IMG/VR virus record: IMGVR_UViG_3300023115_000024
Coordinates: 1-57,755 of that record
Strand: one strand, 5' to 3'
Origin: a virus
Lineage: Duplodnaviria > Caudoviricetes
Length of the DNA stretch: 57,755 nucleotides
The notes under the pieces were generated by a model. That model saw nothing but the letters and a program-made list of their open reading frames with translations, made no database searches and had not been told where the DNA came from. This document shows, one piece after another, positions 8,817-12,515 of this stretch. The first letter of the stretch is position 1. Every line of letters starts with the position of its first letter. The translations under genes were made by a program, and so were the position numbers.

Positions 8817-9328
8817 GCCATCAACTCCTCAACATTAATTGGTGTAAAGTTTATTTGCTCTACACAAACACATTTGTAAGGACCTTCTGGAGAAGGATTA
8901 CTGTGAACGTGTCCGTGCACGTTTATCACACTTTGTCCACCCCACCTTTTGGTTTCGCCTAATGTTTGAGCGTGTAATGGAGTGTGTGACAAAACCATAC
9001 CAGGTAAATCAATCCACAACTGCATGTCCTTAAAGAACGGCGCAAGGAATTTAAGATTATCGTGATTACCTACAACTAATCTTTTTTTTCCTGGCAACTT
9101 TGCAAAGTTAGCTTCTAACCATTCTACTTTGTTGTGGCCGAAAAGGACGTCACCGCAATGTATAACAGTATCTTGTGGCTTCACGGTGTCTGCCCAGTTG
9201 TCTAACATGCACTCGTTCATTTGCTCAACAGAATCAAACAGTCTAGGCGGTTTACCGCTAAGATCAGTGAATGAAAGTATGGCTTCGTGATTAAAGTGCG
9301 TATCACTTATTAAAAATGTGTTAGCCAT
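8813..9328 (-). CDS. calcineurin-like metallophosphoesterase
   Basis: SDTH, GD, GNHD and HGHVH motifs. Confidence 0.88.
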   Translation of the reverse strand: MANTFLISDTHFNHEAILSFTDLSGKPPRLFDSVEQMNECMLDNWADTVKPQDTVIHCGDVLFGHNKVEWLEANFAKLPGKKRLVVGNHDNLKFLAPFFKDMQLWIDLPGMVLSHTPLHAQTLGETKRWGGQSVINVHGHVHSNPSPEGPYKCVCVEQINFTPINVEELMA

Positions 9329-9364
9329 TGTGTGCCTCTGTATGTTTGCCTAATTAATGTATAT

Positions 9365-9393
9365 ATTATAGCAATAGATAGTGTATATGTCAA
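9365..9393 (-). promoter_or_regulatory. sigma70-type promoter
   Basis: TTGACA-17 bp-TATAAT. Confidence 0.8.
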
Positions 9394-9442
9394 CCATTAT
9401 TTGTCAAAAAGACACCAAAAGAAACATAAGACAATCAATGAC

Positions 9443-10063
9443 TTAGCTCTTTTGATATCTTTCTTTATAATATTGCTTGATAATTGAATAATCTCTAGCG
9501 TAAAACTTCTTTATTTTTTGTCTAAAAGCAGGATTTTTAGACACATAATTCTTAAGCCATTTTGTAGGAGCATGTTTTGCTTTTATTTCTTTTGCTTCGT
9601 TAGCATTCTCTATGTTCCCAGATTTTATATTATAATTTTCATATATTTCTTGAATGCCATTATCTTCTAAAACATAAAAGTCGCATTTATCAGGGTTAAT
9701 AAAATAACAATGTTCAAATTGCGGTACTGTATGTTCGTCAAAAATCATCTTGTCTAAATCTAAAGTTCTGATATCCTTATTATTTCTAACGCAGTATTCA
9801 ACAACACCACTTACCCAGCGCCTTAGAGGATCACGTAATAAAACAACGTAATTTATAATATGGCTATCATGGTTGTGCCTAGTAAATTCTCGCCTCCATG
9901 CATCTGAACAATTTCTACTTATAGTTTGTGACGCATTCTTAGGTATCAACAATATTGCTATACGACCTTTGCTTTTAGGTCTAGGACGATTACCTAGCCA
10001 ATGTCCGTGACACAAATCAGCTCTATATGTAGCAAATATTTTGGGATCTAATTTTAATTTCAT
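9443..10063 (-). CDS. sulfotransferase-family (Sulfotransfer_2-like) protein
   Basis: IPKNASQT (5'-PSB-like), LRDPLRRWVSG (3'-PB), HTVPQ and terminal YARDY. Confidence 0.65.
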   Translation of the reverse strand: MKLKLDPKIFATYRADLCHGHWLGNRPRPKSKGRIAILLIPKNASQTISRNCSDAWRREFTRHNHDSHIINYVVLLRDPLRRWVSGVVEYCVRNNKDIRTLDLDKMIFDEHTVPQFEHCYFINPDKCDFYVLEDNGIQEIYENYNIKSGNIENANEAKEIKAKHAPTKWLKNYVSKNPAFRQKIKKFYARDYSIIKQYYKERYQKS

Positions 10064-10085
10064 GCGTAAGTATTTACAAAAAAAG

Positions 10086-10160
10086 TGGAGTGAGCGACAG
10101 GATTTGAACCTGCATAAAACGGATTTGCAATCCGTTGCCTAACCTTTCGACCACGCTCAC
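10086..10160 (-). tRNA. tRNA-Cys(GCA)
   Basis: Cloverleaf; anticodon loop UUGCAAA; U73; encoded CCA. Confidence 0.92.
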
Positions 10161-10165
10161 ATGTT

Positions 10166-10249
10166 TGGTGGGGAAGGGAGGAATTCGCACCTCCACAGCT
10201 TTCGCGCCGAATTTACAGTCCGGTGGGCTCACTCGTGCCCAGCCTCCCC
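10166..10249 (-). tRNA. tRNA-Tyr(GUA), non-canonical D/T loops
   Basis: Acceptor GGGGAGG/CUUCCCC, A73, CCA; anticodon loop CUGUAAA; long variable arm. Confidence 0.85.
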
Positions 10250-10253
10250 AAAT

Positions 10254-10330
10254 TGGTCGGAGTAGTAGGATTCGAACCTACGACCTCTGCATCCCAAATG
10301 CAGCGCACTACCAGGCTGTGCTATACTCCG
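10254..10330 (-). tRNA. tRNA-Pro(UGG)
   Basis: CGGAGUA acceptor, loop UUUGGGA, GUUCGAAUC, CCA. Confidence 0.95.
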
Positions 10331-10404
10331 TGGCAGGCGAGTAGGGATTTGAACCCCAACGAACGGTTTTGGAGACCGCCATGCTACCATTACATCACTC
10401 ACCC
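10331..10404 (-). tRNA. tRNA-Trp(CCA)
   Basis: Anticodon loop CUCCAAA, GUUCAAAUC, G73, CCA. Confidence 0.92.
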
Positions 10405-10406
10405 AT

Positions 10407-10445
10407 AAAAAAAGCCCCCAAACAAATCAATGCTTAGGGGCTTTT
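10407..10445 (-). terminator. intrinsic terminator (attenuator 3:4 hairpin) immediately upstream of tRNA-Trp
   Basis: AAAAGCCCCUAAGCA...UGUUUGGGGGC followed by U7, ending 2 nt before the tRNA-Trp 5' end. Confidence 0.85.
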
Positions 10446-10464
10446 AACGTACTAAAAAGTCACG

Positions 10465-10527
10465 TCAAGACAAACCCCTACCTCCTGGCGGGCACCAATA
10501 CAAATAATTTGTTGCTGTCTTGAACAT
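10465..10527 (-). CDS. attenuator leader peptide MFKTATNYLYWCPPGGRGLS
   Basis: SD AAGGA upstream; TAT-TTG-TAT-TGG-TGC-CCG-CCA cluster matches the downstream tRNAs; overlaps the antiterminator arm. Confidence 0.85.
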   Translation of the reverse strand: MFKTATNYLYWCPPGGRGLS

Positions 10528-10554
10528 GTTAATATTCCTTCTAAGTATGTATAT

Positions 10555-10583
10555 ACTATAACTTCTTTGTATTTATTTGTCAA
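10555..10583 (-). promoter_or_regulatory. sigma70-type promoter driving the leader peptide-tRNA operon
   Basis: TTGACA-17 bp-TATAGT, about 28 nt upstream of the leader ATG. Confidence 0.85.
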
Positions 10584-10737
10584 CCACTTTTTCACATTTT
10601 GCTTTAGTTCCGCAATGTGGACAATGGAAGGTTGCTCTATCTATACAATATTTGTCTTCCATCGTTGCAAAAGTAAAGTAGCCTTTGCAACTGCTGCAAG
10701 TTAAGTGCCAAATAATTTCCTTGACTGCTTTAAACAT
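10573..10737 (-). CDS. small zinc-ribbon protein (54 aa)
   Basis: Hand-translated MFKAVKEIIWHLTCSSCKG...FHCPHCGTKAKCEKVVDK; two CxxC; TAAATA box 7 nt upstream. Confidence 0.7.
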   Translation of the reverse strand: MFKAVKEIIWHLTCSSCKGYFTFATMEDKYCIDRATFHCPHCGTKAKCEKVVDK

Positions 10738-10747
10738 TGTAAAGTAT

Positions 10748-11131
10748 TTATTTACTGTGTTTGTCTTTGTAATCTTTTACGGCCGCTTTGATTGCATCTT
10801 CTGCTAAAACTGAACAATGTATTTTTACTGGGGGTAAGGAGAGCTCTCTAGCAATGTCGGTGTTCTTAATCTCAGTGGCATCGTCAAGAGTTTTGCCCTT
10901 GACCCATTCTGTAAGGAGACTAGAACTAGCAATAGCACTGCCGCAACCATAGGTTTTAAATTTTGCATCTTCAATAACACCGTCGTCATTTACCTTGATT
11001 TGTAATCTCATTACATCACCGCAAGCTGGAGCACCGACCATGCCAGTGCCTACACCGTCAGTATCTGGATCCCACTTTCCTACATTTCTAGGATTTTCGT
11101 AATGATCAAGAACTTTCTTGGAGTATGCCAT
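10748..11131 (-). CDS. iscU: Fe-S cluster scaffold IscU
   Basis: YSKKVLDHYENPRNVG, GAPACGDVM, YGCGSAIAS, LPPVKIHCS. Confidence 0.96.
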   Translation of the reverse strand: MAYSKKVLDHYENPRNVGKWDPDTDGVGTGMVGAPACGDVMRLQIKVNDDGVIEDAKFKTYGCGSAIASSSLLTEWVKGKTLDDATEIKNTDIARELSLPPVKIHCSVLAEDAIKAAVKDYKDKHSK

Positions 11132-11300
11132 AGACTGCTTCTCTAAAAGCAGGATCTTGGCCAAACTGAGATGCTGCTTCTGCTCTTCTCTTAGCTAGTA
11201 CTAAGGGCGAGTTTGGCTTGCGCTTTTCACGGTATGCCCCGTGAGAGCTCATTTTAGCTCTTTTGCGCACTCGTCCACTAGTTTTCATTGTCTTCGCCAT
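11106..11300 (-). CDS. small basic hypothetical protein
   Basis: SD GGAG; Lys/Arg-rich; overlaps the iscU start. Confidence 0.5.
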   Translation of the reverse strand: MAKTMKTSGRVRKRAKMSSHGAYREKRKPNSPLVLAKRRAEAASQFGQDPAFREAVYGILQESS

Positions 11301-11305
11301 AGCGA

Positions 11306-11479
11306 TTATTCTCCGTCAGTCTTTATTTCTATAATGGTACTTTTTAATACATCCTCGTATTTACCATCTTCAGTTTTTACCACAATTCTTTCACTTTCCG
11401 GCCGAACGTTATCTAGTATAACGCCCTTTACAGAGAGTGTTTTATCTTTTTTCCAATGTTTGTAAATTACTTCAACCAT
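11306..11479 (-). CDS. small hypothetical protein (SH3/Sm-like)
   Basis: Start MVEVIY just downstream of tRNA-Ala; the longer track ORF runs through the tRNA. Confidence 0.55.
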   Translation of the reverse strand: MVEVIYKHWKKDKTLSVKGVILDNVRPESERIVVKTEDGKYEDVLKSTIIEIKTDGE

Positions 11480-11489
11480 ATAAACCTTG

Positions 11490-11562
11490 TGGAGCCGGAG
11501 GGAATCGAACCCACGACCTTCTGGATGCAAACCAGACGCTCTCCCTACTGAGCTACGGCCCC
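11490..11562 (-). tRNA. tRNA-Ala(UGC)
   Basis: G3:U70 pair, loop UUUGCAU, GUUCGAUUC; followed by CAA rather than CCA. Confidence 0.92.
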
Positions 11563-11568
11563 TACAAA

Positions 11569-11644
11569 TGGTGCCGGATGCAAGAATCGAACTCGCGACC
11601 TTCTCATTACAAGTGAGCTGCTCTACCTGCTGAGCTAAACCGGC
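11569..11644 (-). tRNA. tRNA-Thr(UGU)
   Basis: GCCGGUU acceptor, loop CUUGUAA, GUUCGAUUC, CCA. Confidence 0.92.
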
Positions 11645-11650
11645 TAAATT

Positions 11651-11725
11651 TTATCTTCTAACTTTACAGTTAGGGCACCAATCGTTGTGCCCTAGTTCTG
11701 TTTTACATTCTGGACATTGTTTCAC
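11651..11725 (-). CDS. 24-aa zinc-ribbon micropeptide MKQCPECKTELGHNDWCPNCKVRR
   Basis: GTG start 4 nt after a TATAAATA box; two CPxC motifs. Confidence 0.5.
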   Translation of the reverse strand: MKQCPECKTELGHNDWCPNCKVRR

Positions 11726-11744
11726 AGAATATTTATACGATTTT

Positions 11745-11960
11745 TCAATGCTTGAAAATATTTTTGATCATATATTCAGCTTGTGGATAAGAATCCATAT
11801 AATTTACTCGACGGTCAACTTCGTCCCATCTTGCTAATTCTTGCCTTGTCTTGATTTCTTGTTTAGACATAGATGGTGTAAAATTATTGATATAATTTGA
11901 TGTCGTATAGGACTGTGTCCAACTGTGTTGGATACCTTTTGTGTAACGCTTGTTTGACAT
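11745..11960 (-). CDS. hypothetical protein
   Basis: ORF in tight gene packing. Confidence 0.5.
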   Translation of the reverse strand: MSNKRYTKGIQHSWTQSYTTSNYINNFTPSMSKQEIKTRQELARWDEVDRRVNYMDSYPQAEYMIKNIFKH

Positions 11961-11969
11961 TATTTTACC

Positions 11970-12515
11970 CTATCGTGCGTTGATTGAAATTGTAACCGGA
12001 ATTTGATCGCCTACACTGTATTGATTGTATGTATAGCTACGGCCTTGAACACCGTTCCATTCATACCAAATTGTGTAATTTTTAATTTCCGTTTTTTGTT
12101 CACGCACTATTGTTTCGGTACATTGCTGTTGCAAGCGATATCCTGTGATAACTTGCTGATTTCTTGCTCTTTTGTTAGCAATGTCTGCTCCGACAATTGC
12201 GCCAAGAACAGTCATTGCATCTTTGCCTGATCCGCCGCCAACTTGATTACCGATCGCGCCACCGATTACAGCACCTAGCACAGTGTCGCCTGTGCTTGCT
12301 TGTCCACCTTGTACATTACCATAGATAGGTACTTCAACATCTCTACATTCTGTACGAGGAATGTTTTGATATACAGTTGTGTAATTAGGATCAATTCGTG
12401 TTACAGTTGCATATTGACTTTGTGCACTTGCAGACCCTGCAAATAGTAAGGAGCCAAGTACGGCTGATGTAGTTAATAATTTTTTCATTACAATCTCTCT
12501 AAAAGTTTCATTCAA
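11970..12515 (-). CDS. glycine-zipper 2TM outer-membrane/secreted protein (YcfJ-like)
   Basis: Signal peptide from MKKLL; GAVIGGAIGNQVGGGSG glycine zipper. Confidence 0.8.
   Translation of the reverse strand: MNETFREIVMKKLLTTSAVLGSLLFAGSASAQSQYATVTRIDPNYTTVYQNIPRTECRDVEVPIYGNVQGGQASTGDTVLGAVIGGAIGNQVGGGSGKDAMTVLGAIVGADIANKRARNQQVITGYRLQQQCTETIVREQKTEIKNYTIWYEWNGVQGRSYTYNQYSVGDQIPVTISINAR

Follow-up and report, generated by a model that had tools for sequence, protein, structure and literature searches.

The element described here is a leader of about 140 nucleotides (nt) that precedes four tRNA genes in the uncultured virus record IMGVR_UViG_3300023115_000024 of IMG/VR (Duplodnaviria; Caudoviricetes), the entire contig of which, 57.7 kb in length, is the window of this analysis. 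On computational evidence, this leader is likely to be a translation-coupled (leader-peptide) transcription attenuator controlling phage tRNA genes. An earlier note on the same DNA had recognised the layout of a leader-peptide attenuator gating a tRNA array, and the same architecture recurs in 73 distinct leaders, encoding 59 distinct peptides, on uncultured viral contigs. The constant partners of the system are tRNA-Trp, encoded directly behind the leader, and a single UGG codon within it, and the codons beside this UGG co-vary with the tRNA genes that follow tRNA-Trp in the respective array.

How termination, translation and stalling would be coupled, and in which direction the element would respond, we infer from the sequence as follows. 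Transcription of the leader would start at a sigma-70-type promoter, and a ribosome would translate an open reading frame (ORF) of 17-22 codons. Under fast decoding the ribosome would reach the last codons and the stop codon and cover region 2 (GGGGUNUGUCUUGA...), upon which the terminator hairpin would form and RNA polymerase would halt 0-11 nt before tRNA-Trp. Under slow decoding of the single UGG or of one of the few codons upstream of it, the ribosome would stall there, melting helix 1a:2 and covering the CCNCC segment that otherwise sequesters the GGGG of region 2; the freed region 2 would then pair with region 3, including the 5' arm of the terminator, and the polymerase would continue into the tRNA array. 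The newly made tRNAs would quicken decoding of the leader and thereby turn the array off again and, since the products would be the sensed molecules themselves, this would constitute direct negative feedback on tRNA supply. Over evolution, the codons beside UGG have been rewritten to match the tRNA genes located behind tRNA-Trp.

The first relatives of the window's leader were uncultured viral contigs reached through the IscU and zinc-finger proteins, and they carry the same promoter-leader-terminator unit in front of differing tRNA arrays. A family search of viral contigs with the 20-nt motif of region 2 returned 115 stretches, which together with the earlier loci and the window make up 129 records and 74 distinct leader regions; one of these, L183, was a chance match and was dropped. 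The reading frame is intact in 71/71 leaders whose 5' end is present, at a length of 17, 18, 19, 20, 21 or 22 codons, with ATG (53 leaders) or GTG (18 leaders) as the start codon and TGA or TAA alone as the stop codon, and each of the 71 holds exactly one UGG before the tail. A promoter (at least 10/12 consensus positions, 24-38 nt upstream) is present in 61/70 leaders and a motif resembling a Shine-Dalgarno (SD) sequence in 63/70. A length change of 1 nt shifts the stop codon in three leaders, namely L237 (10639-10790, minus strand) and L244 (8793-8944, minus strand), which end after 24 codons at a TAA in the small hairpin 3' of region 2, and L234 (3240-3383), which ends after 21 codons at the TGA in GUGAC at the 3' edge of region 2; to judge by these positions, the terminating ribosome would still cover region 2 in all three.

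The family was found on uncultured viral contigs. A motif scan of 185,579 prokaryotic genomes (one per species) gave six matches, all of them chance hits without an ORF, terminator or tRNA. Likewise, a blastn search with positions 9400-11700 of the window against 50,697 phage records matched only IscU (about 71% identity) and tRNAs, and a typical leader (L114:133-360) had no match in the same records.

The codon content of the leaders was compared with the downstream arrays for the 65 leaders with complete arrays, leaving aside the start codon and the three last codons that are fixed by the search motif. Across these leaders, 185 codons are cognate to a non-Trp tRNA of the leader's own array, compared with 118.3 ± 7.4 when arrays are shuffled, and none of 10,000 shuffles reaches 185. 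Taken by tRNA type, with the mean number of cognate codons given for leaders with versus without the tRNA and with one-sided P values, the association holds for Cys (1.29 vs 0.78, P 3e-4), Tyr (1.67 vs 0.47, P 1e-4), Ser(UGA) (2.36 vs 1.04, P 1e-3) and Gln (2.75 vs 1.05, P 2e-4), and for AUA codons it holds both with tRNA-Ile(UAU) (2.67 vs 0.42, P 7e-6), where the leaders of all six arrays have two to three AUA codons, and with tRNAs carrying a CAU anticodon (2.38 vs 0.39, P 1e-6); the association for Gly (n = 3) was not significant alone. The signal exists only in the frame of the ORF (frame 0, z = 9.0; frame +1, z = -2.3; frame +2, z = -0.2), and the cognate excess is found only at codons -7 to -1 and +2 from UGG and is absent at -9, -8 and +3 to +8. 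The check proposed in the earlier note, whether related arrays have upstream mini-ORFs with control codons that co-vary with the anticodons, has a positive outcome in frame 0 alone. On a tree built from the non-control columns, phylogenetically independent pairs for Cys, Tyr, UAU/CAU, Ser, Gln and Gly, taken together, changed in the same direction 16.3 times and in the opposite direction 0.08 times. By these three controls (tree, position and frame), neither shared ancestry nor base composition is a likely cause of the co-variation.

Individual loci illustrate the pattern. L215 (..SIICWPS) precedes an array of Trp, Pro, Cys, Ser and Ile, and the near-identical L114 (..SIIGWPS) an array of Trp, Pro, Gly, Ser, Met and Ile, the TGT of the former leader and the GGT of the latter matching Cys and Gly in the arrays. 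L087 (..ICIICW..) has three AUA codons before an array of Trp, Cys, Met(CAU) and Ile(UAU), L089 has four AUA codons before an array that includes CAU and UAU tRNAs, and L119 reads CGT-TGG-TGC-CCG-GAA in front of Trp, Pro, Cys, Glu and Arg(ACG). In the window itself, six of seven consecutive leader codons are cognate to the four tRNAs, with P ~1.1e-4 given the codon usage of the window, where 10.7% of codons are cognate.

Arrays with a CAU-anticodon tRNA follow L091, L105, L203, L212, L114, L134, L164 and L087. AUA codons occur in the leaders of 8/8 arrays with such a tRNA compared with 13/57 arrays without one, which hints that these tRNAs, called as Met, may be AUA decoders of the lysidine type. 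The tRNA called as Ile(UAU) measures 92-94 nt, has a long variable arm and is the last or next-to-last gene of its array (L087, L141, L154 and L169, which are identical copies, as well as L114, L215 and L089); as these are uncommon features in an Ile tRNA, it is uncertain which amino acid it carries. The leaders of the arrays containing it carry two to four AUA codons.

The effect of ribosome position on RNA structure was assessed by folding each leader with the ribosome-covered bases forced unpaired, and truncated transcripts were represented by RNA cut before the 3' arm of the terminator. With UGG in the ribosomal A site, the antiterminator is predicted in 61/64 truncated leaders, and with the ribosome at the stop codon it is predicted in 0/64; the mean energies are -20.0 kcal/mol for the antiterminator and -18.4 kcal/mol for the terminator. 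Stalling at codons -4 to 0 allows the antiterminator in 61-63/64 leaders, for a reach of 9-12 nt, and the antiterminator is lost stepwise when the stall moves from +1 to +4 codons past UGG, which makes UGG the last codon at which stalling is productive in all leaders. The zone of codon-anticodon co-variation coincides with these productive stall positions. For the window, the minimum free energy (MFE) fold of positions 10550-10400 (-47.1 kcal/mol, z = -3.85, with 0/200 shuffles as good) holds helix 1:2 and the terminator, and the 2:3 antiterminator is predicted at -20.5 kcal/mol once the ORF is masked up to 11 nt past UGG and the 3' arm of the terminator is absent. The three mutually exclusive helices described in the earlier note are therefore recovered.

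These results bear on the reading that the element is a real translated attenuator sensing only Trp decoding or the general translation rate, with the other matches reflecting genome-wide codon usage adapted to the tRNA set of each phage. UGG and tRNA-Trp are indeed the sole invariant pair, 17/65 arrays contain tRNA-Trp alone, and the tRNA sets of phages tend to agree with their codon usage. Nevertheless, we regard sensing of Trp alone as unlikely, since the excess is restricted to a few positions around UGG and does not extend elsewhere in the ORF, since those positions are the stall positions permitting the antiterminator, since effects such as that of Ile(UAU) are large, and since single-codon swaps distinguish leaders as similar as L215 and L114.

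Conservation of the proposed structures was examined in alignments of first 64 leaders (A1) and then 71 leaders, with consensus structures taken from per-sequence folds. RNAalifold on a MAFFT alignment recovered only the terminator, one small hairpin and the CCNCC:GGGG pairing, because insertions and deletions in the ORF blur helix 1:2. In the terminator-state structure, 88.9% of cells are paired and 16 pairs show double changes, the covariation score being 0.156 compared with at most 0.055 when partners are slid; none of 500 shuffles reaches the observed value on four of five measures, and on the fifth, the number of further standard pair types, 10/500 do. The terminator helix is paired in 94.8% of cells across the family, with 6 pairs changed on both sides, and helix 1 (1a:2) has 4 pairs with double changes. 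At the first base of the start codon, 54 of the 71 leaders have an AU pair, 17 have a GC pair and none has an unpaired base, meaning that AUG-to-GUG changes are always compensated in region 2. For CCNCC:GGGG (helix 3), the pair types at successive pairs are CG 65/UG 6, CG 66 and CG 59/UG 8, and this pairing makes region 1 bipartite, one part lying at the start codon and the other at the Pro codons. In the antiterminator, formed by region 2 with ...AGAUAAGCCCC, 89.9% of cells are paired, compared with 44-58% when the partner is slid. In two leaders with a U-to-C change at column 87 in region 2, both alternative partners have changed too, with A to G at column 32 in region 1a and A to G at column 123 in region 3.

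The pairing of the Pro codons is relevant to the idea that the leader encodes an arrest peptide, in which the ribosome would stall on a nascent core of C-W-P-P or W-C-P-P, as with TnaC or poly-proline, and a small molecule or the status of EF-P, not tRNA supply, would be sensed. Arrest motifs rich in W and P exist, and the core of W and Pro is nearly invariant whatever the array. We give this idea little credence, however, as CCNCC is explained structurally by its pairing with GGGG, as the second Pro is swapped for L, S, T or others in many leaders, and as the frame-specific co-variation of upstream codons with anticodons would be left unexplained.

The link between leader and array is strict with respect to the first gene. 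tRNA-Trp(CCA) directly follows 72/72 leaders with readable downstream sequence (71 by ARAGORN; for L168 the CCA anticodon loop was read by eye), and in most of them the gap from the U-run to tRNA-Trp is 0-11 nt. A hairpin with T6 lies within 35 nt upstream of 55/76 arrays led by tRNA-Trp and of 0/122 arrays led by other tRNAs in the same contigs, a comparison of which only the zero is informative since the loci were gathered via the leader itself; in both groups the arrays are alike in consisting of tandem tRNA genes with encoded CCA ends, those led by other tRNAs serving as examples of constitutive phage tRNA clusters. Four relatives, L092 (2662-2695), L093, L094 and L097, are leaderless and have the conserved TTGACA promoter straight before tRNA-Trp, which shows the purpose of the promoter and also indicates that the terminator of the other loci is not merely the end of the upstream gene. 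In these four, the promoter lies at the end of the zinc-finger ORF about 10 nt before tRNA-Trp, and the tRNA-Trp is unusually long at 77-85 nt, with the anticodon at position 36.

The same link speaks to the suggestion that there is no switch and that the leader is a separately terminated gene for a small RNA or micropeptide, the tRNAs arising from constitutive leak-through or from another start. This suggestion draws on the strong terminator, which is the MFE structure in all states of the full-length RNA, on the weak internal promoter-like site (9/12) discussed below, and on studies of rnTrpL that, in the parts available, describe action of terminated attenuator RNAs in trans. It appears very improbable given the short distance between U-run and tRNA-Trp, the conserved alternative helix that overlaps the terminator arm, the restriction of the terminator to Trp-led arrays (55/76 vs 0/122) and the co-variation of leader codons with the array. 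Least credible of all is a ribosome-independent, T-box-like sensor in which charged or uncharged tRNAs would pair directly with the leader codons to set the antiterminator, which would account for leader triplets matching anticodons but is at odds with the start, stop and kept frame in 71/71 leaders and the SD in 63/70, with the lack of a visible T-loop-binding or discriminator-like element, and with an Rfam search of positions 9000-12500 that returned no leader, T-box, riboswitch or other such family at E <= 1, tRNA alone scoring above the gathering threshold.

Several observations weigh against a translation-coupled attenuator responding to several tRNAs. The alternative structures proposed in the earlier note fold as expected in the truncated, UGG-masked RNA (61/64), but in the full-length RNA with the same mask the terminator is still the MFE structure in 61/64 leaders (antiterminator in 3/64), and the untranslated truncated leader also favours the antiterminator (54/64). 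Thermodynamics alone thus gives no switch, and the decision would have to be kinetic, as it is in the trp attenuator. Covariation in the antiterminator is modest, with 4 double-change pairs that stem largely from 2-4 sequences and 7/500 shuffles as high, and was absent in A1 (1 double-change pair, 389/500 shuffles as high), in which the search motif kept region 2 invariant. As the region 2 motif was used for retrieval, the constancy of region 2 reflects how members were ascertained, and the sample is poor in divergent members; a later, relaxed motif brought 10 more leaders and, with them, the modest signal. The tree used for independent pairs rests on about 200 nt, the pairs per tRNA type are too few for significance, and the pooled sum is not strictly independent. 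The match of control codons to all four tRNAs claimed in the earlier note stands for Trp, which is constant, and for Tyr and Cys, which track their own tRNAs, but not for Pro, the codons for which show no association with tRNA-Pro across the 65 arrays (1.62 vs 1.58); Pro codons pair with region 2 and are therefore structural, kept mainly as RNA. Cys, Tyr and Pro codons are retained next to UGG in the leaders of the 17 of 65 complete arrays that consist of tRNA-Trp alone, and some leaders with a YW motif have no tRNA-Tyr in the array, a comparison that covers the arrays alone. Classical attenuators use runs of control codons, whereas these leaders hold a single Trp codon. A weak promoter-like match (9/12) lies within the leader of the window at 10532-10504. 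Finally, contigs from two RNA libraries, X15 (10052-10576) and X16 (10097-10475), bridge leader, terminator and tRNAs and lend the attenuator weak support, but they may be DNA carry-over and give no information on strand, ends, start or level; parts without RNA-library cover carry no meaning.

In the trp attenuator of Escherichia coli (trpL), a short promoter-proximal ORF with Trp control codons is followed by the alternative pairings 1:2, 2:3 and 3:4 and by an intrinsic terminator; region 2 is freed by a stalled ribosome and covered by one that has reached the stop codon. The phage leader is alike in its short ORF, its Trp codon, its regions 1-4 and its intrinsic terminator. It differs from trpL in preceding tRNA genes instead of biosynthetic enzyme genes, so that the sensed molecule would be the product, in having one UGG where trpL has two, in the division of region 1 into start-codon and CCNCC segments, in residing in phage genomes and in lacking a match to the Rfam family Trp_leader. 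The ilvGMEDA and thr leaders are multivalent and sense several amino acids. Similarly, a single phage leader holds codons for several amino acids and would integrate several aminoacyl-tRNA pools, but its codon set, unlike theirs, is rewritten between relatives after the downstream tRNA genes, and its targets are tRNAs. Synthetase genes are the targets of the pheST attenuator (pheM) and of the further attenuators and T-boxes found before genes for aminoacyl-tRNA synthetases, T-boxes acting by binding tRNA directly. The phage element would resemble these systems in that part of the translation machinery responds to how much charged tRNA is available, differing from pheST and the T-boxes in its position before tRNA genes, not synthetase genes, and in having no T-box match.

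In its predicted anatomy, the phage element has every structural feature of the trp/his/thr/ilv attenuator class, although none of the curated models of that class matches it. To our knowledge, all described ribosome-mediated attenuators regulate genes for amino-acid biosynthesis, transport or aminoacyl-tRNA synthetases, and bacterial and phage tRNA genes are generally viewed as constitutive or controlled by growth rate. What appears to be new in the phage element is that the regulated genes are tRNAs. In the full-text literature searched, with subscription journals and supplements outside its scope, no report on leader-peptide attenuation of phage or bacterial tRNA genes was found, and PMC3890552, PMC5784534 and PMC3082878, as far as their available parts go, treat amino-acid operon leaders only. 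If the proposed mechanism is true, tRNA genes would directly regulate themselves through ribosome-mediated attenuation, a type of control that was not found described for any tRNA gene, and these phages would hold a closed feedback loop in which tRNA is both product and signal.

Beyond the single locus, we lean, with less assurance than for attenuation as such, towards a modular 'tRNA-stat'. Promoter, leader, terminator and tRNA-Trp would together form a portable cassette that measures decoding speed codon by codon and has its sensor codons re-programmed at each gain or loss of a downstream tRNA gene; it would top up whichever tRNAs limit decoding during infection, for instance when host tRNAs have been lost or cleaved. 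Candidates for the natural trigger are a codon-usage mismatch with the host, host tRNA loss during infection and tRNA-cleaving defences, between which the sequence cannot tell. Such a cassette would amount to a compact natural sensor that reports the availability of single tRNAs and can be re-programmed, and the element of about 140 nt could serve as a reporter of codon-specific decoding speed. The question of why and when phages need tRNAs also becomes testable, as the leader would state which codons are being 'watched'.

The features of the locus are collected in Table 1. The promoter, SD sequence, 20-codon ORF, terminator and four tRNA genes all lie on the minus strand at the positions given in the earlier note.

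Table 1. Features of the tRNA cassette and its upstream genes in the window.
Feature	Position	Strand	Remarks
IscU gene	11164-10748	minus	first in minus-strand order before the tRNA cassette
Zinc-finger ORF, 54 aa	10737-10573	minus	after IscU, upstream of the leader
Sigma-70-type promoter TTGACA-17-TATAGT	10583-10555	minus	11/12 consensus match
Shine-Dalgarno AAGGA	10540-10536	minus	8 nt 5' of ATG
Leader ORF, 20 codons + TGA: MFKTATNYLYWCPPGGRGLS	10527-10465 (stop 10467-10465)	minus	
Region 1a ACAUGUUCAAGACA, start codon included	10529-10516	minus	5' strand of helix 1:2
Control codons TAT TTG TAT TGG TGC (Tyr, Leu, Tyr, Trp, Cys)	10506-10492	minus	
Region 1b CCCGCC over Pro codons	10492-10487	minus	pairs with GGGG of region 2
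Region 2 UAGGGGUUUGUCUUGACGUG, last codons + stop	10480-10461	minus	partner either regions 1a/1b or region 3
Region 3 ACGUUAAAAGCCCCUA	10450-10435	minus	3' strand of antiterminator, overlapping 5' arm of terminator
Intrinsic terminator: 15-bp stem, 6-nt loop, U7 run	10445-10407	minus	predicted; 2 nt before tRNA-Trp
tRNA-Trp(CCA)	10404-10331	minus	
tRNA-Pro(UGG)	10330-10254	minus	
tRNA-Tyr(GUA)	10249-10166	minus	
tRNA-Cys(GCA)	10160-10086	minus	

The promoter overlaps the 3' end of the zinc-finger ORF. A promoter scan gave 10 promoter-like sites compared with 11.7 ± 3.7 in shuffled sequence and, as this count is no higher than in shuffles, the consensus match by itself proves nothing. The terminator hairpin was missed by a simple terminator scan and found by folding; our guess is that A-U pairs of the stem may consume four of the seven U's.

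The window has a G+C content of about 38% and carries nearly every gene on the minus strand. Its phage-like content consists of ribonucleotide reductase (RNR) subunits and a tail protein, the only PHROGs names obtained among the 10 proteins scanned. In the search for cultured relatives, the closest match of the DNA ligase had at most 35% identity, and among viral proteins no relative of the downstream 206-aa protein was found. The IscU product is an Fe-S scaffold of the IscU/NifU type, and the 54-aa protein encoded next to it is conserved, has four cysteines and lacks a PHROG match; in many relatives, the two genes and the tRNA cassette lie in synteny. Further upstream, at about 11725-11651 on the minus strand, a zinc-ribbon-like mini-ORF of 24 codons (VKQCPECKTELGHNDWCPNCKVRR) precedes tRNA-Thr (11644); it contains a hairpin and ends 6 nt before tRNA-Thr/Ala without a U-run, and does not look like an attenuator.

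In at least seventeen leaders, including L105, L212, L219, L222, L132, L137, L164, L191 and L200, a conserved insert of 76-95 nt separates the U-run from tRNA-Trp (88 nt after L105:2802, for example). A stem of about 10 bp (ACUACACUA...UAGUGUAGU) closes it around 2-3 internal hairpins, its folding energy is about -20 to -27 kcal/mol, and UUUUAAAAAAA follows. It may represent a second terminator, a small mobile insert, or an element that is tRNA-like or serves in processing.

Positions 9900-11200 of the window are near complete (0.93-0.98 of sampled words) in 14 salt marsh metagenome runs, each from a different coded study and one of them possibly the source sample, and are partly present in 6 metatranscriptome runs.

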